A DNA stretch of 64,000 nucleotides. It comes from Patescibacteria group bacterium (GTDB lineage Bacteria; Patescibacteriota; Microgenomatia; Daviesbacterales; UBA10151). The stretch spans positions 5,333 to 69,332 of the forward strand of contig JAMCSY010000011.1 in the NCBI GenBank assembly GCA_023379125.1, read 5' to 3'. Under the pieces are notes generated by a model. That model was not told the origin of the DNA, made no database searches, and saw only the letters and a program-made list of their open reading frames with translations. Made by a program: the position numbers and the translations under genes. Positions 325 to 31,859 of this stretch are shown piece by piece; positions within the stretch are counted from its first letter, which is position 1; each line of letters opens with the position of its first letter.

Positions 325-1389
325 ATGCAAAGCTTCTTGCTTACAGAAATGGAAAATAAATTAAACGAGCTAAAGGCAGACCATTTGCAACAAATTAAAA
401 GAGCCCAAACTCTTCAGGAGTTGGATGATATTTTTCTAAAGTTATTTGGCAAAAATGGCCAGATTACTCTAGTCCCTAAGGACTTTCCTAGTTTACCTAA
501 AGAGGAGTTGAAAACTATCGCTCCTTTATTTAACCAAGTCAAAAATAACTTAGAACAAGCAATCAAGGAACAGCGATCAGCAGTAAGAGAAAAAAGTTAT
601 CAAAAATTAAACGAGGAAGCTTTGGACATTCAACCAGTAGCCTTGCAGCAAAGGTCGGGTTTTATACACCCAGTGATCAAAATAGAAAATGAGATCATTG
701 AGTTGTTTGAAAAACTTGGCTTTTTTAGATTTGAAGCTCCGCAAATTGATTCAGATCAGTATAACTTTGAGTTGCTAAATATACCTGCGGGCCACCCAGC
801 TCGGGATTTATGGGATACTTTATATATTGACTCACAAAAATACGGCATCAATCCTGGACAACTGCTTTTAAGAACACACACCTCTAATGCCCAAGTCAGA
901 GTGATGGAAAAAGTTAAACCTCCTTTTCGAGCCATGATTATCGATCGTTGTTTTCGCTACGAAAATATTGATCCGCGGCATGAACACACTTTGGAGCAAT
1001 TTGAAGTGGTCTTAGTGGAAAAGGGCTTAAGTATGGCTAACTTACAATATCTATCCGAATACTTCCTAAAGAATATTTTTGGCCAAGATATTAAAGTCAG
1101 GATGAGACCTAAATATTACCCCTTTGTGGAGCCAGGAGTAGGTGTAGATGGGGAGTGTATTTTTTGCTATGGAAAAGGCTGTAAAATTTGTGGCGAAGGT
1201 TGGTTAGAACTAGCCGGTGCTGGCATGATCCATCCAAAAGTTCTAAAAAATGGTGGCATTAATCCTCAAGAGTTTTCTGGTATTGCCTGGGGTTTTGGTC
1301 CAGAAAGAATGGCTATGCTCAAATATGGTCTTGCTGATATTAGGATATTTAATAGTGGCAATTTAACTGAATTGGAGAAAATTAAATAA
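325..1389 (+). CDS. pheS: Phenylalanyl-tRNA synthetase alpha subunit
   Basis: 354 aa; class II aaRS motifs (FRFEAPQIDSDQYNFELLNIPAGHPARD, GFGPERMAML); stop overlaps pheT start (TAATG). Confidence 0.9.
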   Translation: MQSFLLTEMENKLNELKADHLQQIKRAQTLQELDDIFLKLFGKNGQITLVPKDFPSLPKEELKTIAPLFNQVKNNLEQAIKEQRSAVREKSYQKLNEEALDIQPVALQQRSGFIHPVIKIENEIIELFEKLGFFRFEAPQIDSDQYNFELLNIPAGHPARDLWDTLYIDSQKYGINPGQLLLRTHTSNAQVRVMEKVKPPFRAMIIDRCFRYENIDPRHEHTLEQFEVVLVEKGLSMANLQYLSEYFLKNIFGQDIKVRMRPKYYPFVEPGVGVDGECIFCYGKGCKICGEGWLELAGAGMIHPKVLKNGGINPQEFSGIAWGFGPERMAMLKYGLADIRIFNSGNLTELEKIK

Positions 1390-3074
1390 TGAAAGTTTCT
1401 ATTAGCTGGTTAAAGGAATTGGTCAAACTTGATAACTCTATCCAGCAAGTTGAGCACCTACTACCCTTAAGAACTATTGGAACCAAAGAAATCGACGAGA
1501 ATTTTTTTGAGCTGGATATGAAAGGCTATAACCGCAGTGATCTACTGTCCATGCGTGGAGTTGCTTATGAAATCGCCGCTATCACCGATGCCACAGTTAC
1601 CTTTAGCGAGACTTTGGACCAAGATTTTATCTGGTCAAACAAAAATTTACCACAAGTTAATGTTGAGGTTTTAGACCCTGACTTAGTCCCTGTCTACGCC
1701 ATTGCCAAGATTGAGGGTCTTGAGGTACAAAACACTCCATCCAATTCAGACTCCGCTAAACAACTTACAGATTGTGGAATGAGGGCAATTAATAATGTGG
1801 TAGATGTGACAAATCTAGTGATGCTGGAATATGGCCAACCTTTACATGCTTTTGATGCTAAGTCAGTCCAGGATGAAAAAATTATTGTCCGTCTAGCCCA
1901 TCCTCAAGAAAAATTGACTACCCTTGATCATAAAGAAAGAGTCCTGGAAAAAACTGATCTTTTGATTTGTGACCCAGCTAAAGCTTTGGGAGTAGCAGGA
2001 GTGATGGGGGGAGCAAATAGTGAGATTTCAGATTCACCATGCACAATTTTGCTTGAGGCAGCCATTTTTGATCCAGTGAAGATTAGGCAAACCTCGCAAA
2101 GACTTGGCCTACCATCTGAAGCCAGCAAAAGATTTCAGCATGGTTTAACTAAAACCAGATTACTTCAAGCTTTAGATGAAGCTATTAGGCAATATCAGGA
2201 TCTAGGTGGTAGACTGACTGCTTTAGCCATTGTTTCTAATTATGAGGACCAGGTTAAACAAGTACATTTGTCCCAGGCAAAAACTAACTCTCTAATTGGA
2301 GTAGTCATAACCAGTCAGCAGATCGAAGATTATTTAGCAAAATTACATTTTAAACTAAAAGTAACTTCAGCAGGTAATTGGGAAGTTAATGTACCTTATT
2401 GGAGATTAGATATCGAGATCGAGGAGGATTTAGTTGAGGAGGTAGCCAGAATGTATGGGTATGAAAATATTCCAGCTCAGCATCTACCTAATTTAAAACT
2501 TAACACTTTAGATCAGACTGATTTAAGAAAAATTGATCAGCTAAAACAAGAGACTGTGACACAGGGTTTAACAGAAATTATGACTTATTCATATTTTACC
2601 AGTGAGGTAATTAATAATCTCCACATTAATCAAGACAGTTTGGTCAAAATTGCTAACCCCATGTCTGCCCAAACAGAATATTTAAGAACAAGACTTTGGC
2701 CAAATTTATTGGAAAAAGCTGCAGAAAATTTAAAAGAAAGAGACAGTTTAGCCATTTTTGAAATTGGTAAAACATACCATCCACAAAACCAGGGTGTACC
2801 CAAAGAGAAAAAAACTTTAGGGATTTTACTGGTTAACCAAACAAATAACCCCTTGGCTGAACTAATCACCATTATCAAACAAATTCCCAGCTTAGTTGAT
2901 CTTACGGTTGAGCAGATTAGTGCAGATAAGAATTTTCATCCCCAGCGCTACTTACAAATTAAAAATAATAGGGGAGAGGTGATTGGTCTGGCTGGAGAAA
3001 TTCATCCCAGAGTAGTTAATCAGTTTGGAGCTGAAAAACGAATTGCAATTATGGAAATTTCTTTAGATGATTAA
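1389..3074 (+). CDS. pheT: Phenylalanyl-tRNA synthetase beta subunit (short form, 561 aa)
   Basis: Bacterial-type N-terminus MKVSISWLKELV; B3/4 and B5-like regions; immediately downstream of and translationally coupled to pheS; about 240 aa shorter than typical bacterial PheT. Confidence 0.8.
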   Translation: MKVSISWLKELVKLDNSIQQVEHLLPLRTIGTKEIDENFFELDMKGYNRSDLLSMRGVAYEIAAITDATVTFSETLDQDFIWSNKNLPQVNVEVLDPDLVPVYAIAKIEGLEVQNTPSNSDSAKQLTDCGMRAINNVVDVTNLVMLEYGQPLHAFDAKSVQDEKIIVRLAHPQEKLTTLDHKERVLEKTDLLICDPAKALGVAGVMGGANSEISDSPCTILLEAAIFDPVKIRQTSQRLGLPSEASKRFQHGLTKTRLLQALDEAIRQYQDLGGRLTALAIVSNYEDQVKQVHLSQAKTNSLIGVVITSQQIEDYLAKLHFKLKVTSAGNWEVNVPYWRLDIEIEEDLVEEVARMYGYENIPAQHLPNLKLNTLDQTDLRKIDQLKQETVTQGLTEIMTYSYFTSEVINNLHINQDSLVKIANPMSAQTEYLRTRLWPNLLEKAAENLKERDSLAIFEIGKTYHPQNQGVPKEKKTLGILLVNQTNNPLAELITIIKQIPSLVDLTVEQISADKNFHPQRYLQIKNNRGEVIGLAGEIHPRVVNQFGAEKRIAIMEISLDD

Positions 3075-3597: not shown

Positions 3598-3746
3598 ATA
3601 AGCTTGCGCAGACTAAAAACCTGCGGTTTTCTCAGCTTATTCAAGCTTTCAACCGCTTCATCACTAATTCAGCAAAAAGCTTGAAACCTTGCTTCGTCTA
3701 CATCACCTGCACTAAAAAGTGTGGGGTTTTAACGAAGCGGTTATAA
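3598..3746. repeat. Structured intergenic repeat, family 1, copy 1 (begins ..TTTATAAGCTT, ends ..ACGAAGCGGTTATAA)
   Basis: About 75-80% identical to copies at 11578-11721 and 47087-47244. Contains the hairpin CGCAG-N9-CTGCG and an outer stem CTTCGT..ACGAAG. Its 3' end overlaps the PBP stop codon. Confidence 0.7.
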
Positions 3747-6338
3747 AGCCACTGTTACTCCAATCGAGGTTGTAAATGTTGCTCCAACATTATCTTCTAG
3801 AGTTGCTGAAATGGTGTGTGAACTATGGTCTCCCTGAGGAAATTCAATATGCAAAGCATAAGGTTCAGCTGTTTGCGTTGATTTTTGAGCTCCGTCAACT
3901 GTCCAAGTTACTTTTTTCACCCCGTTGGGAGAATTGACTGAGGCCAGCACGTCAAAAACCCTGGGGACATTGGCACCATTACCTACATTCACAATCTGAA
4001 TTGCTCCACCACTACCAGCGGAAAAACCTGGAATATTTGAACAACCCATTCCCATACCTACAAACAGCGGATTTGCTGCTGTTAACACCCATTGATCGAT
4101 TCCTGCTTGCCAAGTGTTAGCTCCAGTTGGATCGTTCTCTTGGAGCACAATCACATCCTTTTGATCTCCAGGTTCACCATCTCCAGCTAGACGATGAGGA
4201 TTATTTTGGCAAACTTTTTTGTTTTGATAGGCAGGAGACTGAGCAGTTGGTTCGGTACCTTTAATAAAATATTCCTTGCGAGTAGGTGATCCATCATGCG
4301 GTAATCCTCCCATTAATCCGTCAATATCCATTGATACCACATCATCAGGTTGGTTAAACTGCTCGTCTGGTTTACCATCCAGCACAGCTGTCATAATATC
4401 ATGCCAGATTGGAGATGCCCCAGTGATACCGGAAGAAATCTGCTGATTCATTGGCTCATTATCATTATTACCCACCCAAACTCCAACTACATAAGAGGGA
4501 GTATAACCAAAGGCCCAATTGTCTTTTTTCTCATCAGTAGTCCCAGTCTTGGCAGCCACGGTGTGATTTTTAATTACCAACACTGAATTAGGACCAAACT
4601 CAGCTGTTCTGGCACCATTATCAGACAATATATTAGAAATAATATAGGTAATACCAGAATCCAAAATTTTCTGTCCCAGGGAGGGTTTATATTCATAAAG
4701 CACTTTGCCACTAGCATCAGTTACCTTCAAAATGGAGATAGGATCTTGCTTGACACCTTGGTCGGCCAATACTTGATAAACAGAGACCAAATCCAATAGC
4801 TTGACCTCTCTACCTCCCAGTGTCAAAGACAAACCCACTTGATTGACAGTTTGATCAGTCGGCTCCCAGGTTGACAAACCCATTCGATAACCTAAGTCCA
4901 GATCATCTTTGATTCCCACCATCGCTAACATCTTGACTGCAGGGATATTAAAGGAGTTAGCTAGAGCATAACGCACTTGGACTGGACCATGGAATTGCCC
5001 ATCATAATTAACCGGTACATAAGCGGGATTACCTGCCCCCCCAGGAAATTCAGTTTTGACATCCATTAGAACTGTGGCGGCAGTATAACCTTTTTCTAAA
5101 GCTAGAGAGTAGGTGATTGGTTTGGTTGCCGAACCAGGTTGCCTTTCGTTAATGGCCACATTAACATTAGGTTCAAAAGTACAAGAAACTCCTTCTGTAC
5201 AACCAGCTGGCTCTGATTGACCAAAATAGTCTTTTGAACCAACCATGGATAAAATTTCTCCAGTTTTTGCATCAAGTACCACAGCAGCACCATTACCAAC
5301 ATCATATTTAGTCAAGCCATCAATTTGATCTTTGACTATTTGCTCAGCCTTTTGCTGAATTCCATAATCAAGGGTAGTAGTCACCTTTAAGCCACCTTGT
5401 TCCACCATCTTGTCCCCAAACTGCTCAATTAGTTTCTGCTTAACATACAGCACAAAATGAGGAGCTTTAAAGCCTAGCTCGTTTTGTGAAGTACGATATG
5501 TTAGTTGTTCATTATAAGCATCATCTGCTTGCTTTTGTGTGATATAGCCATTGGCTACCATTGCACTTAGCACCTCTTTTTGCCTCACCTTGGCCAGCTC
5601 TGGATGTGTTCCATATGGAGAATAAACAGACGGCAACTGAGGTAGACCAGCTAGTAAAGAAGATTGAGCTAAATCTAAATCTTTGGCATGAATACCAAAA
5701 TAGAGATTAGCTGCTGCTTCAATACCATAGGCTGTTCCACCATAAGGAATCTCGTTAAGGTACATTTCCAAAATTTGATCTTTACTGTAAACTCGTTCTA
5801 CTTGGATAGCTAAGATAAACTCTTTAATCTTGCGCACTAAAGTCTGTTCATTACCCAGTAAGGCATTTTTGACAAGTTGTTGAGTCAGTGTGGAGCCACC
5901 ACCTTCAACTTGACGATGTAACACTAAATCAAATAAAGCACGAGCTATGCCGGTAATTGAAAATCCACCATGCTGGTAAAAGTTTTTGTCCTCGATGGCA
6001 ATTGTTGCCTGTTTAATGCTATCTGGCATATCAGCTAACTTAACTGGAGTTCGATTCTGATTTTGGAAAATATCGTACAGCAGCTCACCATTACGATCGT
6101 AGATTTTTGTGGACTGTGCTACATTGCGATTACTTAATTGATCAGGGGAGGGAACTTGAGTAGCAAAATAAACTATCCCCGCAATAGTTATCAGAATAAT
6201 GCCTAAAATTAATACCAAGATTACTGTGGAAAGTTTGGACAAAATTTTAGCTTTATCCAAAGAGTGATCAGATATCCGTCTGAGTCTGCGAAAAGGCATA
6301 TCACCACTTAGTATAGCAGCAAGAAGGTTCAGCCTCAA
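3741..6338 (-). CDS. Class A penicillin-binding protein (bifunctional transglycosylase/transpeptidase) with C-terminal extension
   Basis: 865 aa; N-terminal TM; GT51 motifs EDKNFYQHGG, GGSTLTQQLVKN, RKIKE; transpeptidase SxxK (SATK), SxN (SFN), KTG (KTGTT); about 230 aa of extra Gly/Asn-rich C-terminal sequence after KTG. Confidence 0.9.
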   Translation of the reverse strand: MRLNLLAAILSGDMPFRRLRRISDHSLDKAKILSKLSTVILVLILGIILITIAGIVYFATQVPSPDQLSNRNVAQSTKIYDRNGELLYDIFQNQNRTPVKLADMPDSIKQATIAIEDKNFYQHGGFSITGIARALFDLVLHRQVEGGGSTLTQQLVKNALLGNEQTLVRKIKEFILAIQVERVYSKDQILEMYLNEIPYGGTAYGIEAAANLYFGIHAKDLDLAQSSLLAGLPQLPSVYSPYGTHPELAKVRQKEVLSAMVANGYITQKQADDAYNEQLTYRTSQNELGFKAPHFVLYVKQKLIEQFGDKMVEQGGLKVTTTLDYGIQQKAEQIVKDQIDGLTKYDVGNGAAVVLDAKTGEILSMVGSKDYFGQSEPAGCTEGVSCTFEPNVNVAINERQPGSATKPITYSLALEKGYTAATVLMDVKTEFPGGAGNPAYVPVNYDGQFHGPVQVRYALANSFNIPAVKMLAMVGIKDDLDLGYRMGLSTWEPTDQTVNQVGLSLTLGGREVKLLDLVSVYQVLADQGVKQDPISILKVTDASGKVLYEYKPSLGQKILDSGITYIISNILSDNGARTAEFGPNSVLVIKNHTVAAKTGTTDEKKDNWAFGYTPSYVVGVWVGNNDNEPMNQQISSGITGASPIWHDIMTAVLDGKPDEQFNQPDDVVSMDIDGLMGGLPHDGSPTRKEYFIKGTEPTAQSPAYQNKKVCQNNPHRLAGDGEPGDQKDVIVLQENDPTGANTWQAGIDQWVLTAANPLFVGMGMGCSNIPGFSAGSGGAIQIVNVGNGANVPRVFDVLASVNSPNGVKKVTWTVDGAQKSTQTAEPYALHIEFPQGDHSSHTISATLEDNVGATFTTSIGVTVAL

Positions 6339-6393: not shown

Positions 6394-7068
6394 TCAAGGT
6401 CGTTGAAAGATCGCTACAAACATTGGAATCTTTCTGATTGCTCCTTCAATGACATCAGAGCCCGCTTGCTCTTGTAGACTAATTAATTTGAATCGTTTAT
6501 ATACAGTTAACAACTCATCTTTGGAATATTGTTTTTCAAACTCACCGGTTCGTGGGAAAATACAGCTGTTTGGTTCAGGCCCAGGACTAGTTCTGACAAG
6601 ATCTGTCGTCCCAACTCCATAAAAAAGATAACAACCACCCGGCAGAAGTTTTGTATAAGATTGTTCAATAACCTGTGATCTACCGGGTTGGGGAATACAA
6701 ATTGTTACATTACTGTCAATGATTGCTTGGAAGCTATGTTCTGCAAAAGGCCATTTGTTAGTTATGTCCAGTTGAACAAAAGTTACCTGAGCATTTGCCA
6801 AAGCAGCTCTTTGTCTGGCTACTGATAAACTACCTTCTTCAATAAAATCCACACCTGTTACTTGAAATCCTAACATAGCCAAACCAATACTATTTCTGCC
6901 TTTACCACAGCCTAAGTCAAGAACATGAGTTTTCTCTGGCATAAATCCCTGAGCAATTAAGAAATTAGCAAACTCTACAACACAATTTGAAGGTGTTTCT
7001 GAATGGATCTTAGTAAAAGTACCTCCAGCAGTATGTTCTTCCTGCCAAACTTCTTTTTGGGGCCTCAT
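6394..7068 (-). CDS. Class I SAM-dependent methyltransferase
   Basis: 224 aa; motif I VLDLGCGKGRNS; Rossmann-fold spacing. Confidence 0.6.
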   Translation of the reverse strand: MRPQKEVWQEEHTAGGTFTKIHSETPSNCVVEFANFLIAQGFMPEKTHVLDLGCGKGRNSIGLAMLGFQVTGVDFIEEGSLSVARQRAALANAQVTFVQLDITNKWPFAEHSFQAIIDSNVTICIPQPGRSQVIEQSYTKLLPGGCYLFYGVGTTDLVRTSPGPEPNSCIFPRTGEFEKQYSKDELLTVYKRFKLISLQEQAGSDVIEGAIRKIPMFVAIFQRP

Positions 7069-7110
7069 GGCAGAAATTATACTACGAGATTAGTTTTGGA
7101 TAATTTATTG

Positions 7111-7183
7111 TCCTGAGGGTAGGAGTTGAACCTACTTAAAACGGTTTTACAGACCGTCGCCTCAGCCGTTCAGCCACCTCAGG
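7111..7183 (-). tRNA. tRNA-Tyr (anticodon GUA), class I with 5-nt variable loop, C1:G72, A73, CCA not encoded
   Basis: Minus-strand sequence CCTGAGG-TG-GCTGAACGGCTGAGGC-G-ACGGT-CTGTAAA-ACCGT-TTTAA-GTAGG-TTCAACT-CCTAC-CCTCAGG-A folds into a cloverleaf by hand. It has a 7-bp acceptor stem, D-loop with GG, anticodon loop with U33-GUA-A37, and T-loop TTCAACT. Confidence 0.65.
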
Positions 7184-7331
7184 TATCTTCACAATTTTAG
7201 GATCTCTGATCGCAAAAGGCAAGCCTAGTGCTAGTCAATAACAATCTCCCATACTTACCAATTTCATACATAGACTCAATTGACTCGCAAGAGGATATCT
7301 CATACTATTTAAGAGGAAGCTAAATCTGCTC

Positions 7332-8447: not shown

Positions 8448-9755
8448 ATGACTGACAGCCCGGATACTCAAGAAAACAATTCTCAAAAACGTATTACTAC
8501 AACTCGTCGAAAATTGTTAGTTGCGACAGCAGCTGCTACACCGACTCTTTTGGCTGCTGGTAATTTAGTGAAAGCTTTTGTCCAGGAGGCAAATAAAGCA
8601 AATACTCCGTATAAAGCACCAACAAAAAATCCTCCCACTGCCACGCCAGCTACTCATACTCAATCAGAAAGAGTGATTGCAACAACCCCAACTGTCTCTG
8701 CTAATATTACAGAAAAAGCACCTATGGAGAATCCCTTGCAGCAGGTGCTTAAATTGCCTCTAGAATCTAGTGAGAGACAAAGCGCAGAGGCAGATATTGT
8801 GACCAAGGCGCAAAGCTTGCAGCAAATCGATCAAGCTTTGTGGGTTGTTAATAATATGAATTTAAGAGCTCAATTAATCGAAAAAAGGTATCAACTAAGA
8901 TCACAACGCAAGGATAATCTAAAACCTCTAAATCAAGCAGAAACTAAATGGGCCCTAGACCACGAACTTCACCCAGAAGATATTGCAATTGCCCAAGAAG
9001 CCTACACTAAGGCCAGCACAATTATTGCCAACTTACTGACTGATAAAAGTCACCCTTTTCGGCCTGACATTGATCTACAAATCCAAAGAGGCAGACTACC
9101 TCAATCTTCTCAACAACTCCTCTTAGCCCAACAAATGATGATCAATAGTGGTGGTATGGCTACTTTGTTATCCACAGAAACTGGAGTGGGCAAACAATTC
9201 CAGATTCACAAAGCAGGAGAAAGTAGGATTGTTTCCGTGGCTTTAAGCAATATTGGCCAAACTCCAGCCATCCAGGTAAACAAGCTTTATAGTGAAGAGA
9301 AAAAGCAATCTCAATATCAACAAATGGCTGATATTTTTCAGCACACCACAGGTTTAGTAATTTCATCTGAGCAAATTCCTGGATCTGGAGGTCAAGCTCC
9401 TGGGGACATAAGTGGGGGAGCAGTTTCCGTGCAAATGTTACCAGACTCGATATTGGATATTGAGCAAGATGTTTACCGGGCTACTGGAAAATACTTGAAT
9501 TGGGCAGACCCAGTAGAGAGTGTGGCTCTGGCTTATATTTTCTTAGCCAAGGGCTGGTTGGTTGGACAAGGAGCTCGCTTTGGGTATTGGCGGGGGACAG
9601 TCATAGACCCAAAACAGGGTAACGATGTGGCAGAGGCAATGCGTCAAGATGCTCTAGCTAAGTGGAATCAAGATCAACAGCAACAAAAGAAAATACTCGA
9701 CGCTGCAAATAGCTACTATGCGAAGATTATCGCACTTAATATTTCTAGTTACTGA
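8448..9755 (+). CDS. Hypothetical secreted protein with Tat-like signal (TRRKLLVATAAATPTLLAAG), Gln-rich C-terminus
   Basis: 435 aa ORF; RRxLL twin-arginine-like N-terminus followed by hydrophobic stretch. Confidence 0.45.
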   Translation: MTDSPDTQENNSQKRITTTRRKLLVATAAATPTLLAAGNLVKAFVQEANKANTPYKAPTKNPPTATPATHTQSERVIATTPTVSANITEKAPMENPLQQVLKLPLESSERQSAEADIVTKAQSLQQIDQALWVVNNMNLRAQLIEKRYQLRSQRKDNLKPLNQAETKWALDHELHPEDIAIAQEAYTKASTIIANLLTDKSHPFRPDIDLQIQRGRLPQSSQQLLLAQQMMINSGGMATLLSTETGVGKQFQIHKAGESRIVSVALSNIGQTPAIQVNKLYSEEKKQSQYQQMADIFQHTTGLVISSEQIPGSGGQAPGDISGGAVSVQMLPDSILDIEQDVYRATGKYLNWADPVESVALAYIFLAKGWLVGQGARFGYWRGTVIDPKQGNDVAEAMRQDALAKWNQDQQQQKKILDAANSYYAKIIALNISSY

Positions 9756-11796: not shown

Positions 11797-12921
11797 ATGA
11801 CTACTGATGAGAAGCTGAGCTTGATTACTAGAAATTTGGAGGAAGTTTTAACAACTGACGAGTTGAGGAAACTATTAGAGTCAGGTACCCCTCTAAAACA
11901 CTACATCGGCTTTGAAATCTCTGGTAAGATCCATGTTGGCCAGGGGATTTTAAGCATGATGGTGATAAAAAATCTCCAAGAGGCAGGAGTAGATATTACA
12001 GTCTATTTAGCTGATTGGCACACCTGGCTTAATAAAAAACTAGATGGTAATTTGTCCACTGCTTCTAAAATGGCCTTGCAATATTTTGCCGAAGCAATGA
12101 AAGCTTGCGCTCTGGTAGTTGGTGCAGATCCAGAAAAAATAAAGTTCCTTTTAGGAAGCGAATTTTATAAGGCGAAAGGTCTAGATTATTGGTCCACAGT
12201 TATCAGAGTATCAAAAGAAACAACTCTCGCTAGAATGCTCAGATCTACCACGATTATGGGAAAAAAGGAAGAAGATATTACTGATTCAGCAATGTTGATC
12301 TATCCAGCGATGCAGTCAGCAGATATCTTCACGATGGGCGTTAATTTAGCACATTCTGGGACAGATCAACGGAATGTACATGTAATTGCTCGAGAAAATG
12401 CGGTTAAGCTAGGTTTTGATAAACCAATTGCCCTACATCAACATTTACTCTTAAGTCTATCCAAACCTGATGTTTGGCCCATCCCAGAGGGGGACAGAGA
12501 AGAATTAGCTCAGTCCATGAAAATGAGCAAGAGCAAACCCGATAGTGCCATTTTTATTCACGATAATCCAGATGAAATCAGAAGAAAGATTAAAGAGGCT
12601 TTTGCTCCAGAAGCAGAGGCTAAATATAATCCTATTTTGGATTGGACTAAATATTTAGTTTTTGGGTTACAAAGCGAGTTTACTATTAAAAGAGCGGAGC
12701 AATATGGTGGTAATGTTACTTATTCTTCATATGAGCAGCTTGAAAAGGACTACCAGCAAAAGAAACTTTATCCACTGGATTTAAAGAATGCTTTGGCTGA
12801 GTGGTTGATTAAAAAATTGGAGCCAGCCAGAACTTATTTTGAGGACCCTCAAAGACAACAAGCTTTAGCAGAAATAGAAAAGTTAACTTTGACGAAGCGA
12901 TATAATATTAAAAATGGATGA
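11797..12921 (+). CDS. tyrS: Tyrosyl-tRNA synthetase, archaeal/eukaryotic type
   Basis: 374 aa; HIGH-region YIGFEISGKIHVGQG matches archaeal TyrRS YIGFEPSGKIHLGH rather than the bacterial form; KMSKS present. C-terminus GGNVTYSSYEQLEKDYQQKKLYPLDLKNALAEWLIKKLEP closely resembles recalled M. jannaschii TyrRS. Confidence 0.75.
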   Translation: MTTDEKLSLITRNLEEVLTTDELRKLLESGTPLKHYIGFEISGKIHVGQGILSMMVIKNLQEAGVDITVYLADWHTWLNKKLDGNLSTASKMALQYFAEAMKACALVVGADPEKIKFLLGSEFYKAKGLDYWSTVIRVSKETTLARMLRSTTIMGKKEEDITDSAMLIYPAMQSADIFTMGVNLAHSGTDQRNVHVIARENAVKLGFDKPIALHQHLLLSLSKPDVWPIPEGDREELAQSMKMSKSKPDSAIFIHDNPDEIRRKIKEAFAPEAEAKYNPILDWTKYLVFGLQSEFTIKRAEQYGGNVTYSSYEQLEKDYQQKKLYPLDLKNALAEWLIKKLEPARTYFEDPQRQQALAEIEKLTLTKRYNIKNG

Positions 12922-17799: not shown

Positions 17800-18480
17800 T
17801 TGTTGATGAAAATCAACATCGTTACTTTATTTCCAAAACAGTTTATGCCATTTCTGGAAACTTCAATTGTTGGCCGAGCTGTCAAACAGCATAAAGTTGA
17901 ATTCAATTTAATTGATTTACGTCAGTTTGGTGAGGGAAAACACCAGATAGTTGATGATCGTCCTTTTGGCGGAGGACCAGGTATGATTTTGAAAGCTGAT
18001 ATCTTAGCCAAGGCAGTTAAATCATTGCCTTACAAACCATATACTCTTCTTATGTCAGCCTCAGGCAAGCCTTATAATCAGCAGCTAGCTCAACAGTTTT
18101 CTCAACTTCCAGAACTATTGATCATTGCTGGGCACTACGAAGGTGTTGATCAAAGATTTGTCGATAAGTATGTTAACGAAGAAATTTCGATCGGTGATTA
18201 CGTATTAACTGGCGGCGAGATTCCCACTATGGTAATTGCTGATTCGATAGTCCGTCTCATCCCTGGAGTACTTAAAAAAGCTGAGGCAACTGAACAAGAA
18301 AGTTTTAGTCACAACCTCCTCGAATATCCCCAGTACACCAGACCAGAGAATTTTGAAGGGGCAAAGGTACCTCCAGTACTACTATCTGGTCACCATCAAC
18401 AAATTAAACAGTGGCAAAAACAACAATCAGAAGAAAAAACTACTCACCTCAGACCTGACCTGCTCACCAAAAATCACTGA
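17800..18480 (+). CDS. trmD: tRNA (guanine37-N1)-methyltransferase
   Basis: 226 aa; MKINIVTLFP..VDDRPFGGGPGMIL SPOUT motifs. Confidence 0.9.
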   Translation: MLMKINIVTLFPKQFMPFLETSIVGRAVKQHKVEFNLIDLRQFGEGKHQIVDDRPFGGGPGMILKADILAKAVKSLPYKPYTLLMSASGKPYNQQLAQQFSQLPELLIIAGHYEGVDQRFVDKYVNEEISIGDYVLTGGEIPTMVIADSIVRLIPGVLKKAEATEQESFSHNLLEYPQYTRPENFEGAKVPPVLLSGHHQQIKQWQKQQSEEKTTHLRPDLLTKNH

Positions 18481-19163
18481 AAGGGATCAGCTTTACCCAA
18501 GGGAACAGACACATTCTCACTGGTAGTGTTTATTACTAGAGGAGCACTTCGACTATAGAGTTGTTGCAATACCGTCTTATCTTTTTCGTTAAGCTTAGCT
18601 ACTGGTTGTTCCGGATTAATCTTGGAGGCAGAAACTGTTTTGTAATAGGCATCAATAGGCAAAGTAATTTCTGCTCCATCACCCTGATTAGAAAATCTAA
18701 TTGCCTCAACTGTTACTGCCCGCTGAAAATTATCTAAATTACTTAAAAACAGTCCTAGCTGTGGTGGTTGGCCCAAAGCAGTTAAGTTTAATACATAGCT
18801 ACTGTTGTCTCCAGTTTGTTTGAGTTGACCAAAATTAAGATTTTTAGTGATCAGTGCAGATTGACTCATTAATCCTTGTATTGAAACCACAGTTTCTGGG
18901 ACAGCAGGGGAGGTAGGTAAAACATTCAGTAGGATCTGTAAATCTTTTGACATTTGATCTGAATCTAAACTATTCAGATCATTAATTTTAGTTTCCAATC
19001 GCGTACTTCGATCATTAAGGGCACTAATTTTTTTCTGAGTATCAAGATAACTTAACAGTTGTGGAACAATCACCAGACCCACTACTGAGACTGAGACAAC
19101 CAGCACAACTATGGGAATTACTAAAAAACTATATTGTTGAAAAGTAAATTTTATTTGGTCCAT
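18474..19163 (-). CDS. pilO: Type IV pilus assembly protein PilO-like
   Basis: 229 aa; N-terminal TM then coiled coil; positioned after pilM-pilN. Confidence 0.5.
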   Translation of the reverse strand: MDQIKFTFQQYSFLVIPIVVLVVSVSVVGLVIVPQLLSYLDTQKKISALNDRSTRLETKINDLNSLDSDQMSKDLQILLNVLPTSPAVPETVVSIQGLMSQSALITKNLNFGQLKQTGDNSSYVLNLTALGQPPQLGLFLSNLDNFQRAVTVEAIRFSNQGDGAEITLPIDAYYKTVSASKINPEQPVAKLNEKDKTVLQQLYSRSAPLVINTTSENVSVPLGKADPFQ

Positions 19164-19708
19164 TAATTTGTTTTAATTTTTAAGGTAAAACGATAGACAT
19201 TATCTTTCCCCATTGATAAACCATCAAAATCAACCAGCGAGATTAAGTTTTGATTTTTTGACTGATCAGCTAAATCATGAAAAAGTGCATCCATATCCGC
19301 AAGAGAAGTAGTATTTAAAGAGATAATCAGATTATTACTTTTATCTAAAGACAAATCCGTTACTTGCATTCCTGGTGGAAGTAAATTCATAATCAGGCTA
19401 TAGATCTGTTTACGCTTTTGATCACCACCTAGAATGCCTTCGATCGAAGTCAAACGATCCTTGATTAACCAAGCCTGGCTATCTTTATCAGACATGGCCA
19501 ATACTTGATTCTGATCATTAGAGACGCGATCGTTGGCACTATTTAGTGCAGATTGTTGAGTAAGGCGCAAAGCAACTGTAGCTCCTCCTAAAATAACTAC
19601 AAAAACCAGCACACCAAAACTGACCTTTCTTAACAGATCAAACTTGAGATTCTGCTTTTTCTCTTCAAGTAAATCGGTTGGGAGTAAATTAACCGCTAAT
19701 TTATTCAT
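19163..19708 (-). CDS. pilN: Type IV pilus assembly protein PilN-like
   Basis: 181 aa; VNLLP N-motif then TM; start overlaps pilO stop. Confidence 0.55.
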   Translation of the reverse strand: MNKLAVNLLPTDLLEEKKQNLKFDLLRKVSFGVLVFVVILGGATVALRLTQQSALNSANDRVSNDQNQVLAMSDKDSQAWLIKDRLTSIEGILGGDQKRKQIYSLIMNLLPPGMQVTDLSLDKSNNLIISLNTTSLADMDALFHDLADQSKNQNLISLVDFDGLSMGKDNVYRFTLKIKTN

Positions 19709-19726
19709 GATGTTTCCTCACTTGAT

Positions 19727-20755
19727 TTACTCACTGCGCAAGGCTAAACCAACGGCAATGGTATAGTGAGTAGCATTTTCCAAAAGTTTAGCTTGAATTG
19801 AAGCATCTTTTTCAATAAAGTACCAAGGATCAGCTTCTTGAATTTCCAAGCCTAGTTTATTAGCAAAAAAGATTACTAAGCCAGGTAGTTTAGCTCCACC
19901 TCCAGTTAACACCACTCGTTTAATTTGATTCTGGGGGAACTTATTCTCAAAAGCCTGAACAACCCTACCAGATTCAGTCACAATCAGATCCACTAAAGGC
20001 TCTAGGACCTGATAAATTTTGCCACCTAATTGGTCTTGTAGTAAACCATATACTTTTTTATACTCCTCAGCTTGCATCATCTCAAAGTTTAAGTATTGGG
20101 CAATAGCTCTGGTTAAAGCAATTCCGCCGGTTGAGATAGAACGCGTTAACAAAATCATCCCCTTTGAGACCACTGCAAAGTCAGTTGAGGAAGCTCCAAG
20201 CTGCACAATCATAGTGGTTGGAGCATAAGGATTTCCCCCAACTAAAGCCCTAGTAGCCGCAATTAACTCAGTTTCCATCGCCATCGGTTTCAGTTGAATT
20301 TTACTCAAGACTTTGAGGTATTTTGCGACAGTATTTTTAGGTGATGCCACCACAAAAACTGTCGTATTATTGCGTTGCTTACTGCGGTCCATCACTTGCC
20401 AGTACAAATTAACCTGATCTGCTGGTAAAGGTACAAATTCTTCAGCTGAGTATTTAATAGCTGAAGCTAGTTCATCATCAGATAGATAAGGAAGATCACC
20501 AATTACCCGAGTGAAAATTCGTGATTCCGGTAAAGCCACTACAACTTCCTGCGGGGCTTTTAAAGCTTCCATTAAACTCTTAATTGATTTACTGACAGCA
20601 TCCAGATCTAAATCAAATTCTGAATTCATCCCAGGTTGGGGAGTGGGAGTAGAACCAAAAGAGACTAAACGTGGAGTCTTGGCTTTGTGAGATAAAACTA
20701 CTGCTTTAATGGAAAAACTTCCAATATCTATTCCAGTTACATAATCGGCAGCCAT
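19727..20755 (-). CDS. pilM: Type IV pilus assembly ATPase-fold protein PilM
   Basis: 342 aa; actin-like GIDIGSFSIKAVVL, VQLGASSTDFAVV. Confidence 0.8.
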   Translation of the reverse strand: MAADYVTGIDIGSFSIKAVVLSHKAKTPRLVSFGSTPTPQPGMNSEFDLDLDAVSKSIKSLMEALKAPQEVVVALPESRIFTRVIGDLPYLSDDELASAIKYSAEEFVPLPADQVNLYWQVMDRSKQRNNTTVFVVASPKNTVAKYLKVLSKIQLKPMAMETELIAATRALVGGNPYAPTTMIVQLGASSTDFAVVSKGMILLTRSISTGGIALTRAIAQYLNFEMMQAEEYKKVYGLLQDQLGGKIYQVLEPLVDLIVTESGRVVQAFENKFPQNQIKRVVLTGGGAKLPGLVIFFANKLGLEIQEADPWYFIEKDASIQAKLLENATHYTIAVGLALRSE

Positions 20756-20851
20756 ATATAATTTGGATGTTCACACTCATAGTACACGACATTATTTGAG
20801 TGTCTATATCTATTTAAATATGTCTAATCTCAAAATGCAAGAATTGAAAAA

Positions 20852-22651
20852 CTACTTTTCTTGATAGCTACCCTTAATAATACTAAAGGAGCCAGATGGC
20901 CCGGATGAGAAAAACGAAGAAGCCAACCCAGTGTCATAATCAACTACTACGTTGTTTGACAGATTAATTTTCCAAGCTGTAAGCTCTGTCATGTGATTAT
21001 TATTACTGATAACTACCATGCCATAAGGTGCATATAAAACACCTTGATTACCACTATTGGCTACACTGACCGCAGTTGAGCCGTTAGTCCTACTATCATA
21101 AGTAGTTAGGGTAAGCAGATAGCTACCAGCAGTCCCTGAACCCAGCAATCTGCAGCTATTACTCAGAGTAATCACACCATCCACTACGATTACCCCAGAA
21201 GAAGCACCATAAGAGCTATCTAGATTAAGCACCACATTATTACTTAGATTCAAGTAACCAGTAATCCAAACTGGATCTTTGATTGTCACCATACAGTTGT
21301 TAGTAAAAGTAACATTACCAACATATTTACCTGGACCAAGCGTAGTACGACAACTTGAGATATTACCGGTATAAACACCCGCTGCTGTGGCTGCATCTTT
21401 CCAGGCTTGGATATTGGCATCAGATACAGGCATTGCTTTGGCAGGAGGATCAGCAGATCCAGGATAATAATTACCAGCAGAAATGCCGTTGGCAGTTTGA
21501 TAATAAGCACCACCATTAATTAGTAATGAATTTAACGTATTAGCATGAGCATCGCCTTGAACAGTCGATCCATTAGTTCCAGTAATATTAGTTCTGGTAC
21601 CACCCATGAAGGTTTTAAAATCCAAATCGACTAAAGTAGAGTTCCAGATGGGAGTAGTAGCTTGCCAATTTGCTGACCATTTAGCCGCACCTCTAGTATA
21701 ACCTTGACTAGAGTCTGCTGACCAACTCCAATAGTTTGTAGCATTGGAGGTTGTATCTAAAAGGATCCAGTACGTGTTACCAGAGTTTACCTGGGGAGAG
21801 CTAGTAAATGTGACCTCAACAAAACCATAGTTACCTGTCACCAAGCTAGCAGGTAAGGTACCTGAGGCAATCACATTATTTTTATCTGGGGAGCCATTTT
21901 TATCTTTAGTAATTCTGACAGTAATGTCTGGTGGGGAACCGACTTTTTTCAAATTGAGAGAAATTTTATTTAAATAGTCACTAACAGACGGCTTGAAGCT
22001 TTGGGCTACATCCAGCTGATCGTTGCCAGCCACGTTTTTCCCAAAGACAAAATCAGTACAGCTTGGGGTTGTACAAACGCTTTCTTGATCAGGTGCAGGA
22101 GCGACACCTCCTGCTACATACGCATCACCTGTGACAATCGAGTTATTACTCATTGAAACATTACCATTGGAGTAGATTGAACCATTCACTCGTGCTCCAT
22201 TGGACATTTGTAACCCTCCCTCACCAACCTGGACACCATAATTAAAAGAAACTCCTAAACCTTTTGAAGCGGACACTTTGATTGTTCTAGTAACTTTCGG
22301 CTCAGCTTTGGATGGGATATAGCCTGTAGCCTCAATTACTTTAGTGCCTACATCGGGGGTAGTCACAGTTACCGAATATGACCCTTCACCTAACTGAATC
22401 TCACTGTCACCGTTATATGAACCACCAGTTGCATTAAGTGACGCCAGAGCTTTATCGACACCAGCCTCAGCTAAATTAGTTGCTTGAGTCTCTTCCACTG
22501 AATACTTTGCATTATTTGAATATATCTGTGATCCTCCAATAATGACTAAAGTATTAACCAAAACAAGTCCAATCACAATCACACCTAAAATAAGAATCTG
22601 CCCTGATTCTATCGTTGGACAAAATGATTTGTTTAGTTGTCGTTTATTCAT
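20852..22651 (-). CDS. Large pilus-associated protein with PilX_N-like N-terminus (putative tip/adhesin; Asn/Gly/Ser-rich beta-rich body)
   Basis: 599 aa; N-terminal TM + QATNLAEAGVDKALASL (PilX_N-like); repetitive NG/NS-rich sequence. Confidence 0.5.
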   Translation of the reverse strand: MNKRQLNKSFCPTIESGQILILGVIVIGLVLVNTLVIIGGSQIYSNNAKYSVEETQATNLAEAGVDKALASLNATGGSYNGDSEIQLGEGSYSVTVTTPDVGTKVIEATGYIPSKAEPKVTRTIKVSASKGLGVSFNYGVQVGEGGLQMSNGARVNGSIYSNGNVSMSNNSIVTGDAYVAGGVAPAPDQESVCTTPSCTDFVFGKNVAGNDQLDVAQSFKPSVSDYLNKISLNLKKVGSPPDITVRITKDKNGSPDKNNVIASGTLPASLVTGNYGFVEVTFTSSPQVNSGNTYWILLDTTSNATNYWSWSADSSQGYTRGAAKWSANWQATTPIWNSTLVDLDFKTFMGGTRTNITGTNGSTVQGDAHANTLNSLLINGGAYYQTANGISAGNYYPGSADPPAKAMPVSDANIQAWKDAATAAGVYTGNISSCRTTLGPGKYVGNVTFTNNCMVTIKDPVWITGYLNLSNNVVLNLDSSYGASSGVIVVDGVITLSNSCRLLGSGTAGSYLLTLTTYDSRTNGSTAVSVANSGNQGVLYAPYGMVVISNNNHMTELTAWKINLSNNVVVDYDTGLASSFFSSGPSGSFSIIKGSYQEK

Positions 22652-22661
22652 TGCTCTAGAC

Positions 22662-23228
22662 CTACATATTTCTTAAAGTCACTGAAACTTTGGATGTCCT
22701 TTGTGAACTAACTTGACCTGTTTGGGCTAAGACTGTCAAAGAAACCTCGACCACACTGGCTGAAACAGGCGTTACTTGATTACCATTCTTATCATAAAAC
22801 TTATATTGGACATTATCGAGTAGGGTAGTAAGTACCTGATTAGTTGACTTACGACTACTTTGTGGATCGGGAAAAATTTGCATTCGCAGAATGTTGGGAT
22901 TTGTGGGATCGGTTGAAAAAACTACATAGTCATAAGTATCTGGAATAATTTCAGTAGGACCTTCCGAGGCCAGTTTCAAAACCAAAACATGACTACTGGT
23001 AACAAAACTAGGAGTTGCTTCTGGATATCCAGTAGCTACTGCTGAGGCCTGTCTAATCATTGAAGTTAAATTATCCATCGTGTCATTAATGTTTACTCCC
23101 TCGTTAATTACAGCACCTTGTTTGAAAAAGAATCCATTTGAATTAACCAATATACTTATTAAAAAAGTCCCCACCACTAAACCAATCGCGGAGACAATTA
23201 TGACTTCTAGTAAAGAAAAACCTTTCAT
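22662..23228 (-). CDS. Minor pilin (prepilin-type N-terminal cleavage/methylation domain)
   Basis: 188 aa; MKG|FSLLEVIIVSAIGLVVGTFLI. Confidence 0.65.
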   Translation of the reverse strand: MKGFSLLEVIIVSAIGLVVGTFLISILVNSNGFFFKQGAVINEGVNINDTMDNLTSMIRQASAVATGYPEATPSFVTSSHVLVLKLASEGPTEIIPDTYDYVVFSTDPTNPNILRMQIFPDPQSSRKSTNQVLTTLLDNVQYKFYDKNGNQVTPVSASVVEVSLTVLAQTGQVSSQRTSKVSVTLRNM

Positions 23229-23234
23229 AAGCAG

Positions 23235-23666: not shown

Positions 23667-23696
23667 CTTTTTGTTATAAGTATTAGGTCTATTCTT

Positions 23697-24665: not shown

Positions 24666-24713
24666 CCCCTGATTCCATCGTATAACAAAACTACTTACAG
24701 CGGCAATTTATTG

Positions 24714-25430: not shown

Positions 25431-25434
25431 CTGT

Positions 25435-26088: not shown

Positions 26089-26183
26089 TACCTTATTTCA
26101 CTATATGGTGAGGTCTGCAATCTTGTCAATGAATTCCAACTTCTTAATCAGGATTTGGGGCTGTTATCCTAACAAAAAAAGGA

Positions 26184-26870: not shown

Positions 26871-26908
26871 TAACTAAAAAATAACATGGTTATATCATTA
26901 AAGTCATC

Positions 26909-29469: not shown

Positions 29470-29475
29470 AATTAG

Positions 29476-31858: not shown

Positions 31859-31859
31859 A

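Follow-up and report, generated by a model that had tools for sequence, protein, structure and literature searches.

Archaeal-type tyrosyl-tRNA synthetase and a short-arm C1:G72 tRNA-Tyr in a chromosomal segment of a Daviesbacteria bacterium

Introduction

Candidatus Daviesbacteria, tiny bacteria of groundwater type that belong to the CPR (Patescibacteria), probably charge tyrosine tRNA by the archaeal rule. The 64-kb stretch of DNA analysed here (the window) encodes an archaeal-type tyrosyl-tRNA synthetase (TyrRS) and a tRNA-Tyr of the matching identity, and comparison with related loci points to a history in which the synthetase was replaced, the resident tRNA was switched to a C1:G72 first pair, and a short-arm gene later came to occupy the same locus.

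Few amino acids have a tRNA identity rule that separates bacteria from archaea and eukaryotes. Tyrosine is one of them, with G1:C72 and a long variable arm in bacteria and C1:G72 and a short arm in archaea and eukaryotes. Genetic code expansion with the M. jannaschii TyrRS-tRNA pair builds on this difference, which was for a long time regarded as a barrier to the entry of TyrRS genes into bacteria. Bacteria that naturally follow the archaeal rule show that the barrier can be crossed, a point made in 2017 for the same bacterial group. The phenomenon is already known, because Mukai, Reynolds, Crnkovic and Soll (2017, Life 7:8; PMC5370408) described CPR bacteria with an archaea/eukarya-type TyrRS that lacks the S4-like domain and with a C1-G72 tRNA-Tyr that has the long arm in some cases and lacks it in others; Daviesbacteria are among the groups named in their TyrRS tree. 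The case presented here adds modest context to this known system.

The host and its contig

The window comes from the chromosome of a Candidatus Daviesbacteria bacterium. The CPR host is shown by the bacterial genes on the same contig, which include a type IV pilus cluster and the genes for PheS/PheT, PBP1A, RecG, TrmD, GyrA/B and RuvC, and the nearest relatives of the window TyrRS come from Candidatus Daviesbacteria metagenome-assembled genomes or Patescibacteria loci. GC content is uniform along the window, at 0.35-0.41.

The genes around the tRNA provide anchors for comparison with other loci. The bacterial-type pheS and pheT genes (325..3074, plus strand; TIGR00468, 254 bits, and TIGR00472, 420 bits) are syntenic with those of loci L039, L100, L180 and others, and form part of a conserved PheS-PheT-x-PBP1A-tRNA-Tyr block. 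The PBP1A gene (3741..6338, minus strand; TIGR02074, 512 bits) serves as the synteny anchor. Between it and the tRNA lies a gene for a SAM-dependent methyltransferase (6394..7068, minus strand), which was assigned from NCBIfam methyltransferase matches that all fall below cut-off, and for which tblastn at 1e-10 found no homologue in any related locus.

Since CPR and DPANN genomes co-occur, and since Mukai et al. point out that the bins of one may contain DNA of the other (PMC5370408), the tRNA and tyrS might in principle lie on archaeal DNA that was misjoined or misbinned with bacterial DNA. This explanation is effectively refuted: both genes sit within one contig among unambiguously bacterial genes (PheST, PBP1A, RecG, NusB, RNase III, TrmD), the gene order tyrS-RecG-NusB-RNase III-S16-TrmD recurs in many independent Daviesbacteria assemblies, and the evenness of the GC content argues in the same direction. 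Furthermore, the TyrRS protein, which is identical to NCBI MCL5409955.1, was found exactly on a 22-kb contig of the independent Logan assembly that overlaps the window.

The tyrosyl-tRNA synthetase

The tyrS gene (11797..12921, plus strand) encodes a long-form archaeal-type enzyme of 374 aa, as judged from profile matches, structural relatives and residue mapping. The NF006330 profile for archaeal-type tyrosine-tRNA ligases scores 422.3 bits against a cut-off of 220, with residues 1-358 aligned to profile positions 1-338 of 342, whereas the general TIGR00234 model gives only 123 bits. The best solved relative is the Pyrococcus horikoshii enzyme (PDB 2cyc; E 4.8e-115), a protein of 375 aa that aligns with the window TyrRS from end to end; the bacterial Thermus TyrRS (1h3e) reaches only E 2.6e-09. 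The original prediction of an archaeal-type tyrS 4.6 kb from the tRNA gene was therefore sound. PF00579 is the sole Pfam domain in the protein according to the precomputed Pfam assignments, and the enzyme thus has no S4-like C-terminal domain.

The catalytic and tRNA-reading residues were mapped onto an M. jannaschii TyrRS sequence whose numbering reproduced the published residues. The HIGH motif takes the form HVGQ (H46-V-G-Q49) and KMSKS lies at 242-246, while Tyr36, Asp176 and Gln191 correspond to Tyr32, Asp158 and Gln173 of the M. jannaschii tyrosine pocket. Arg132 and Arg174 of the M. jannaschii enzyme read C1 (PMC1934993), and their counterparts in the window, Arg149 and Arg192, are conserved in 43/43 aligned sequences of the Daviesbacteria clade, as is Asp328, the equivalent of the anticodon-reading Asp286. 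The contact with G72 is the exception. M. jannaschii Lys175 is replaced by Asn193 in the window and by Asn in 41 of the 43 clade sequences; Lys occupies this position in all 29 archaeal and all 7 other CPR sequences aligned. Lys175 is not a family-defining residue, yet its replacement is a departure from the archaeal recognition mode, and G72 must presumably be read somewhat differently by the window enzyme.

All 43 aligned sequences of the Daviesbacteria clade, the window included, are archaeal-type TyrRS. In a neighbour-joining tree built without support values, the enzymes of 44 Daviesbacteria or Patescibacteria loci, which are 56-71% identical to the window TyrRS, fall into one clade. The Daviesbacteria enzymes are nearer to the long-form Thermococci and Asgard enzymes (about 51% identity) than to the short-form DPANN enzymes sampled (about 39%). 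A tblastn search of the 64-kb window with E. coli TyrS detected no bacterial-type TyrRS (best E = 1).

The tRNA-Tyr gene

The tRNA-Tyr(GUA) gene (7111..7183, minus strand) is 73 nt long and has the class I shape. The single tRNA that ARAGORN reports in the window is a tRNA-Tyr (anticodon GTA) on the minus strand at 7110-7183. Rfam RF00005 covers positions 7183-7111 of that strand over its full length with 56.5 bits (gathering score 29; E 1.6e-09), and the window has no other match to any Rfam family. The Rfam alignment and the sequence together give the arrangement CCUGAGG UG GCUG AACGGCUG AGGC G ACGGU CUGUAAA ACCGU UUUAA GUAGG UUCAACU CCUAC CCUCAGG A, which has a C1:G72 first pair, discriminator A73, anticodon GUA, the T loop UUCAACU and a variable loop of only 5 nt (UUUAA) in place of a variable arm. 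The original prediction had described just such a molecule as the only tRNA of the window, and its position, length, isotype, anticodon, variable loop, first pair and discriminator all agree with these results; it named no strand, and the gene lies on the minus strand. The gene thus has neither the G1:C72 pair nor the long variable arm of a canonical bacterial class II tRNA-Tyr. It does not encode CCA, the bases after A73 being CAAUAA.

When folded alone, the sequence has a non-cloverleaf minimum free energy structure with a weak z of -2.1. This single-sequence fold was set aside because both the covariance-model match and covariation across relatives favour the cloverleaf: in 13 distinct relatives with a short arm, pairing in the cloverleaf amounts to 99.6% and 9 pairs have changes on both sides, a result reached by 0/500 shuffles. 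C1:G72 and A73 are invariant in these 13 relatives, although G71, G72 and A73 were imposed by the search pattern.

In the core of the molecule, the D stem consists of 3 bp plus a G13·A22 mismatch, and the Levitt pair is A15:A48. No tRNA-Tyr comparator was found in the 27 archaeal TyrRS loci searched, and the archaeal comparator is therefore a single sequence, that of M. jannaschii tRNA-Tyr, which has a 4-bp D stem and G15:C48. Judged against this comparator, and as a lead only, the window core looks not typically archaeal but rather bacterial-like or idiosyncratic. The description of the tRNA as one of archaeal/eukaryotic design thus holds for the identity set (C1:G72, A73, GUA) but apparently not for the core.

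Upstream of the tRNA lies a sigma-70-like promoter candidate (7194..7222, minus strand; TTGCCT-17 nt-TAAAAT, a 9/12 match in a consensus scan), which stops 11 nt short of the 5' end of the gene. Four sigma-70-like sites were found in the region when 2.8 were expected from shuffles, which is no excess, and only the position of the candidate is suggestive of a promoter.

The PBP1A-adjacent locus in relatives

In the loci of 17 relatives, a tRNA-Tyr gene adjoins and diverges from an orthologue of PBP1A (54-73% amino acid identity). All 17 of these genes have C1:G72, and 16 of them are long-arm, class II genes with an arm of 13-14 nt. The block PheS-PheT-x-PBP1A-tRNA-Tyr...TyrRS-RecG is common to the window, to L039 (long arm) and to L004 (short arm). 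Because 16 of the 17 relatives combine the long arm with C1:G72, the switch at 1:72 and the loss of the arm must be separate events, with the short-arm form secondary. The original prediction held that the synthetase and its substrate had been co-replaced; a bacterial host does carry an archaeal-type TyrRS together with a tRNA of archaeal identity, but the long-arm relatives speak for a change in steps and against a single event.

The same loci bear on the idea that the genome has a dual system, in which a bacterial TyrRS and a G1:C72 long-arm tRNA-Tyr are encoded elsewhere and the window pair is an additional, mutually orthogonal one. There are parallels in a related contig (L198/L199) that carries a canonical G1:C72 long-arm tRNA-Tyr as well as a short-arm C1:G72 tRNA-Tyr, and in the comparable double Trp system that Mukai et al. 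describe in a Beckwithbacteria genome (PMC5370408). Nonetheless, this arrangement seems quite improbable for the genome of the window: neither a bacterial TyrRS nor a second tRNA is present within the 64-kb window, the tRNA-Tyr beside PBP1A is itself C1:G72 in the 17 Daviesbacteria-like loci, and so is every tRNA-Tyr recovered from Daviesbacteria-type loci. CPR genomes are in addition small (820,589 bp for the L039 chromosome) and rarely keep duplicate synthetases.

The preferred reading, archaeal-rule charging reached in steps, would account for these patterns as follows. The long-form TyrRS keeps the two C1-reading arginines and has no S4-like domain with which to hold a long variable arm, and the window tRNA offers what such an enzyme reads, namely the GUA anticodon, C1:G72 and A73. 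The long arm would have become dispensable because nothing reads it. The synthetase was replaced in the ancestor of the Daviesbacteria, as its distribution shows; the resident bacterial long-arm tRNA-Tyr beside PBP1A would then have switched its first pair to C1:G72, a state kept in 16 of the 17 relatives; and in the lineage of the window the gene at this locus would later have become a short-arm tRNA. Most likely, a short-arm tRNA-Tyr lineage that accompanies TyrRS genes in other CPR supplied the sequence for this last step, either by replacing the resident gene or through gene conversion.

The window locus does show signs of disturbance. Its tRNA-Tyr has the opposite orientation to that in all 17 relatives, with the methyltransferase gene lying between it and PBP1A, and the inversion and this unique gene together imply a local rearrangement. 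A methyltransferase also lies beside the cassette in L170, but comparison found it to be unrelated to that of the window.

Short-arm tRNAs and TyrRS cassettes in other CPR contigs

Similar short-arm tRNAs come from other CPR contigs. Outside the variable region, the window tRNA shares 90% identity with the short-arm tRNAs of L132/L170, which adjoin a TyrRS of a different archaeal-type subfamily, and only 68% with the long-arm tRNA of L039. The pattern by which the metagenome tRNA matches were picked constrains the anticodon loop, the T loop and the 3' acceptor strand in part, and overall identities to distant comparators (67% for M. jannaschii, 64% for E. coli, a mean of 69% for CPR long-arm genes) are biased by this pattern and non-discriminating. 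On the origin of the tRNA, only a module-by-module comparison among CPR tRNAs is informative, and even there tRNA similarity is a weak phylogenetic signal in which common short-arm features could be convergent. In this comparison, the anticodon stem and T arm of the window tRNA are 100% identical to those of the L132 cassette tRNA, whereas the long-arm genes at the orthologous locus have mean identities to the window of 0.41 in the anticodon stem and 0.76 in the T arm. The L004 tRNA-Tyr is a mosaic of the kind expected from partial gene conversion. A further "tRNA", directly upstream of TyrRS in L161, was excluded from the counts, its 5' acceptor strand being broken.

An alternative route to a short-arm gene at the PBP1A locus would be loss of the arm in place, from the resident long-arm C1:G72 gene, with no S4 domain selecting for the arm and with the likeness to other short-arm tRNAs being a convergence forced by the class I core. 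The locus is that of the 16 long-arm genes, and the layout of the D arm (3-bp stem, purine 13·A22 mismatch, A14-R15-Y16-G18-G19) is still that of bacterial tRNA-Tyr, as in E. coli tyrU and in CPR long-arm genes. Arms of intermediate length (12-13 nt) exist, some of them with the same T stem GUAGG/CCUAC (L145, L189), and Mukai et al. likewise derive the C1-G72 long-arm tRNAs from bacterial tRNA-Tyr (PMC5370408). However, the anticodon stem and T arm match the L132 cassette tRNA rather than the local long-arm genes, even though nothing constrains the sequence of these stems, which does differ from one long-arm gene to another; the gene is inverted with a novel methyltransferase gene alongside; and the window and L004 have the acceptor stem CCUGAGG in common and yet are not sisters on the TyrRS tree. 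In-place arm loss is therefore possible but rather doubtful. Replacement or gene conversion at the PBP1A locus is most likely the route taken, and simple in-place deletion of the arm less likely, given the inverted tRNA, the unique methyltransferase gene, the module identity with L132, the 90% versus 68% overall identities and the L004 mosaic.

The linkage of short-arm tRNA-Tyr and tyrS in the other CPR subfamily, with gaps of 1 nt in L204, 9 nt in L085, 190 nt in L156 and 1.4 kb in L132/L170, might seem to favour the co-replacement of the original prediction in its strict form, namely import of the short-arm tRNA and the TyrRS gene from an archaeon as one pair. The TyrRS enzymes of this tRNA-linked subfamily are 59-62% identical to DPANN and Asgard enzymes, and Mukai et al. 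ascribe "bacterial or archaeal origins" to the tRNA-Tyr genes of CPR (PMC5370408). The window TyrRS, however, belongs to the Daviesbacteria clade, is just 48-49% identical to the tRNA-linked subfamily, and has clade relatives whose known tRNAs are mostly long-arm. Three genes and a distance of 4.6 kb separate the window tRNA from tyrS, which lies on the other strand, so the two do not form an operon; no flanking repeats of the kind that mark a mobile cassette were found around the tRNA-to-tyrS stretch, and a tRNA-Tyr lies within 10 kb of tyrS in only 3 of the 44 Daviesbacteria loci. The tRNA core is likewise unlike that of M. jannaschii tRNA-Tyr, a point that serves as a lead only. Import of the two genes together thus appears unlikely.

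One contig suggests how a short-arm tRNA could travel. In L198, a cassette consisting of orf228, a short-arm tRNA-Tyr, orf297, a YbaK-like editing protein and an archaeal-type TyrRS is bounded by perfect 77-nt inverted repeats, with a gene for a large serine recombinase alongside, and both orientations of the cassette were found. We tentatively suggest, as a conjecture with the odds against it, that the short-arm C1:G72 tRNA-Tyr is one lineage that moves between CPR in a small TyrRS-tRNA-Tyr cassette, a naturally mobile orthogonal pair; L198 would then represent the starting state, and the window a domesticated end state that has displaced the resident long-arm gene beside PBP1A.

Significance and comparison with known systems

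The occurrence of long-arm and short-arm C1:G72 tRNAs at one locus in one CPR lineage provides material for studying how a class II tRNA is converted to, or replaced by, a class I tRNA, and the related contigs suggest cassette-borne pairs as the vehicle. If such a mobile cassette does operate, a bacterium could swap its tyrosine identity rule without a lethal intermediate. The CPR pairs could also supply new orthogonal pairs for synthetic biology.

Relative to the CPR system of Mukai et al. (PMC5370408), the window differs in nothing essential and represents another genome of the same group. Three added details were not found in the accessible text of that paper: the shared PBP1A-adjacent locus of short-arm and long-arm tRNAs, the unusual short-arm core (R13·A22, homopurine 15:48), and the position of the Daviesbacteria TyrRS nearer to Thermococci and Asgard enzymes than to the DPANN enzymes sampled.

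The archaeal pairs (M. jannaschii, 1J1U; P. horikoshii, 2cyc) resemble that of the window in the fold family of the enzyme, in the HIGH and KMSKS motifs, in the C1-reading arginines and Asp286, and in the tRNA set of C1:G72, A73, GUA and a 5-nt variable loop. They differ in that the window host is bacterial and carries Asn in place of Lys175, and the M. jannaschii tRNA, with its 4-bp D stem and G15:C48, departs from the 3 bp plus G13·A22 and the A15:A48 of the window. The E. coli tyrU sequence, fetched for comparison, is like the window tRNA in GUA, A73, the 3-bp D stem, G13·A22 and the A14-R15-Y16-G18-G19 loop, and unlike it in having G1:C72 and a 13-nt variable arm.

Engineered E. coli strains in which the TyrRS-tRNA-Tyr pair was swapped for an archaeal or eukaryotic one (refs 17 and 18 of PMC5370408) are likewise bacteria that decode tyrosine by an archaeal-rule pair. 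These laboratory constructs, as cited in that paper, indicate that transfer of enzyme and tRNA together is the workable route. In the Daviesbacteria, by comparison, the archaeal rule is a natural state, and it apparently arose in steps in which the native tRNA was adapted.

The tyrosine tRNA and its synthetase

The sole tRNA gene that ARAGORN places in the 64-kb window is a minus-strand tRNA-Tyr(GTA) at 7110-7183. It matches the full length of the Rfam tRNA model (7183-7111, 56.5 bits, gathering score 29), and tRNA is the only Rfam family matched in the 64 kb. The Rfam alignment and the sequence together read CCUGAGG-UG-GCUG-AACGGCUG-AGGC-G-ACGGU-CUGUAAA-ACCGU-UUUAA-GUAGG-UUCAACU-CCUAC-CCUCAGG-A, a 73-nt short-arm molecule (class I, lacking a variable arm) with a 5-nt variable loop and the identity positions C1:G72, A73 and anticodon GUA; by the same two sources, the gene does not encode CCA. 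The original prediction had described this tRNA correctly, as judged by ARAGORN, Rfam and the sequence, without giving its strand. The single-sequence thermodynamic fold is not the cloverleaf, but when 13 distinct short-arm relatives are aligned the cloverleaf pairing reaches 99.6%, with nine pairs changed on both sides, a result equaled in 0 of 500 shuffles. A candidate sigma-70-like site lies upstream of the tRNA, ending 11 nt short of its 5' end; because such sites are no more frequent near the tRNA than in shuffled sequence, only its position is suggestive.

The tyrS gene (11797-12921, 374 aa) was likewise predicted to be of archaeal type, and this is borne out by its 422-bit match to the NCBIfam model for archaeal-type tyrosine--tRNA ligase (NF006330), where the general tyrS model TIGR00234 gives 123 bits, and by its best solved relatives, every one of them archaeal (Pyrococcus horikoshii 2cyc, E 4.8e-115; 7fg6; 2cya; 2cyb). 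The bacterial Thermus TyrRS matches at only 2.6e-09. PF00579 is its sole recorded Pfam domain, implying that the window enzyme has no S4-like domain. Residues were mapped by alignment to the M. jannaschii TyrRS sequence, with numbering that agrees with the published residues. In that numbering the tyrosine-pocket residues Tyr32, Asp158 and Gln173 are kept, as are HIGH (as HVGQ), KMSKS, Asp286, Arg132 and Arg174. In the M. jannaschii crystal complex, Arg132 and Arg174 read C1 and Lys175 contacts G72 (PMC1934993). The window enzyme has Asn193 (codon 12373-12375) at the place of Lys175, and the residue is Asn in 41 of 43 TyrRS sequences of the Daviesbacteria clade and Lys in 29/29 archaeal and 7/7 other CPR sequences.

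The window TyrRS has the same sequence as NCBI MCL5409955.1, which a Patescibacteria MAG encodes. When one genome per species was scanned, 44 loci emerged with TyrRS 56-71% identical to it, titled mainly Candidatus Daviesbacteria or Patescibacteria; the next matches were Asgard archaea at about 50%, followed by short-form DPANN enzymes at 30-37%. In a neighbor-joining tree without support values, the window TyrRS falls inside the Daviesbacteria clade, whose sister is a loose group of P. horikoshii, Asgard and several other CPR sequences.

Genomic context

The remaining genes of the window are all bacterial, including PheS, a shortened bacterial PheT, PBP1A, RecG, NusB, RNase III, S16, TrmD, GyrB/GyrA, a XerC/D-like integrase, RuvC, YebC and a large type IV pilus cluster, and GC content is even (0.35-0.41). 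The PheT gene (1389-3074, 561 aa) matches just positions 157-689 of the 798-position bacterial profile and lacks the N-terminal part, which fits a remark by Mukai et al. (PMC5370408) that the B2 domain is missing from many CPR PheRS beta subunits.

The pilus genes make up most of 18474-38163, with PilM, PilO, at least eight prepilin-like ORFs with N-methylation motifs, a PilD-type peptidase, PilC and two T2SSE ATPases. The cluster is interrupted by a glycosyltransferase-like ORF and a TPR ORF on the other strand, and several of its large ORFs have no family match, e.g. 20852-22651 (599 aa). Between a cohesin-domain gene cluster and a DUF5656 gene, a 1.38-kb stretch (51219-52598) lacks any Rfam match at E <= 0.1, and no ORF on its two strands exceeds 64 aa.

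Linkage and synteny of tRNA-Tyr and tyrS

In the original prediction, tRNA and synthetase appeared to have been replaced together. It read the match between enzyme and tRNA correctly, but a single event is too simple a history: linkage, synteny and the tRNA core, three lines of sequence evidence, argue for stepwise change of the two genes. In the window they lie on opposite strands with three intervening genes, and a tRNA-Tyr occurs within 10 kb of tyrS in just 3 of the 44 Daviesbacteria loci, namely L004 (short arm) and L008 and L039 (both long arm, i.e. class II), all three with C1:G72 and A73. The window, L004 and L039 have in common a PheS-PheT-x-PBP1A-tRNA-Tyr...TyrRS-RecG block.

Scanning metagenomes with a tRNA-Tyr pattern added at least 120 loci, a pattern-selected sample whose counts are not prevalences. 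A PBP1A orthologue (54-73% amino acid identity) adjoins tRNA-Tyr in 17 loci, comprising 15 metagenome loci among the matches listed plus L004 and L039. The tRNA has C1:G72 in 17/17 of these and a 13-14-nt arm in 16/17, L004 being the sole short-arm case. At this locus, then, the group has a long-arm tRNA of bacterial kind with the first pair already switched, and the short arm came later.

Origin of the short-arm gene

The short arm could have arisen by deletion of the variable arm in place, at the PBP1A locus, or by replacement or gene conversion from a short-arm lineage. Deletion would account for a locus common to short-arm and long-arm genes, and intermediates with 12-13-nt arms do exist. 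Replacement or conversion fits more of the data. The window tRNA gene is inverted relative to 17/17 relatives at the locus, and none of the related loci has a homologue of the methyltransferase gene between it and PBP1A. The tRNA on L132, a metagenome contig, has an identical anticodon stem and T arm, whereas the mean identity of the window tRNA to the long-arm genes of the orthologous locus is 0.41 in the anticodon stem and 0.76 in the T arm. With the variable region excluded, identity is 90% to L132 and a second such contig, L170, and 68% to L039. The L004 tRNA looks like a mosaic, with the anticodon stem of the local long-arm genes and a T arm and acceptor stem of the short-arm type. Replacement or conversion is thus favored over deletion, though not strongly, given the shortness of tRNAs and the sequence positions fixed by the search pattern.

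The core of the tRNA is also distinctive. Its D stem has 3 bp and a G13·A22 mismatch, and a purine 13·A22 mismatch recurs in 13/13 short-arm CPR tRNA-Tyr genes. In its D loop, A14-R15-Y16-G18-G19, it follows E. coli tyrU and the long-arm genes of CPR bacteria. The Levitt pair (15:48) is A:A; the 13 short-arm relatives have G:G (seven), A:A (five) or G:A (one), a homopurine switch between G:G and A:A in 12/13 (Fisher p = 0.005, relatedness not corrected for), compared with G15:C48 in 97 of 104 long-arm genes among the matches listed. This core, with its purine 13·A22 mismatch and homopurine 15:48 pair, recalls the unusual one in E. coli tRNA-Cys; it differs from that of M. jannaschii tRNA-Tyr.

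tRNA-synthetase cassettes in other CPR contigs

A second archaeal-type TyrRS subfamily, which shares 48-51% identity with the window enzyme and 59-62% with those of DPANN and Asgard archaea, has a short-arm tRNA-Tyr adjoining tyrS. A short-arm C1:G72 tRNA-Tyr lies on the same strand 1 nt (L204, 9926-11125), 9 nt (L085, 662-1799) or 190 nt (L156, 400-1802) upstream of archaeal-type tyrS, and the L204 neighbors are PheST, NusA, ClpP and RNase Y. These look like tRNA-synthetase operons in bacterial contexts.

In L132 and L170 the tRNA-tyrS gap is 1.4 kb, within a common 3.06-kb block (81% identical; tRNA-Tyr, orf297, a tRNA_edit protein and TyrRS) whose flanks differ. A fuller contig of L132 (L198) and an independent assembly (L199) carry, in order, tRNA-Thr, a long-arm G1:C72 tRNA-Tyr (L198 1546-1632), Ddl, tRNA-Thr and a serine recombinase gene (534 aa in L198, beside the cassette). 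There follows the cassette of orf228, a short-arm C1:G72 tRNA-Tyr, orf297, a YbaK-like tRNA_edit gene and archaeal-type TyrRS, and then L33, tRNA-Trp and, further on, SecE, NusG and L11. The 4-kb cassette sits between tRNA-Thr(GGU) and L33/tRNA-Trp (L198 2900-9300), bounded by perfect 77-nt inverted repeats (4688-4764 and 8670-8746), and in L200, from another sample, it is opposite in orientation relative to the flank. It has the look of a TyrRS-tRNA module, mobile or invertible, whose host genome retains a canonical tRNA-Tyr, and this is how a true co-transfer would appear. No such repeats flank the tRNA-to-tyrS stretch of the window.

In five further metagenome contigs (L125, L157, L158, L151 and L163), long-arm C1:G72 tRNA-Tyr genes have a homologue of the serine recombinase from L132 (28-52% identity) about 60-430 nt away, suggesting that integrative elements target or abut tRNA-Tyr in CPR bacteria. 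In L203 (437-7161), a short-arm tRNA-Tyr and an aminotransferase gene precede a TyrRS of 536 aa with a fused N-terminal tRNA_edit (YbaK-like) domain; a tyrosine integrase and a Replic_Relax gene adjoin, and an Asp/Glu racemase gene is one gene further on. This is possibly a mobile module with an amino-acid-related role.

A distinct 72-nt short-arm C1:G72 group has G, not U, at position 8 (L087, 34-738 and 2540-2612; L082, L091, L095, L122, L134, L174, L182); in L087 a bacterial-type TyrRS fragment (33% identical to E. coli TyrS) lies 1.8 kb from the tRNA, and a bacterial-type enzyme may be paired there with an archaeal-style tRNA. Two metagenome contigs (L075 2161-2237, in a dense tRNA gene array; L076 1541-1617) share one and the same tRNA with a CUA anticodon, which matches the tRNA-Tyr pattern and is called 'tRNA-Pyl' by ARAGORN; it may be an amber suppressor of a phage or recoded organism and has no relation to the window. 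In L161 a long-arm tRNA-Tyr-like sequence (48-134) ends 4 nt upstream of archaeal-type tyrS, and pairing between the UCAAGG of its 5' acceptor strand and the CCUCUGG of the 3' strand is impossible, a sign of gene decay or misassembly.

Relation to known systems

The leads worth pursuing lie in these related contigs rather than in the window. A tRNA-Tyr and TyrRS that follow the archaeal rule have been in the literature for this candidate phylum since 2017: Mukai et al. (PMC5370408) describe archaeal-type TyrRS with C1-G72 tRNA-Tyr in CPR bacteria, and in their account many such tRNAs keep the variable arm, armed and armless forms both occur, and Daviesbacteria is one of the major bacterial groups in the TyrRS tree, so that the present finding is a rediscovery of the same phenomenon.
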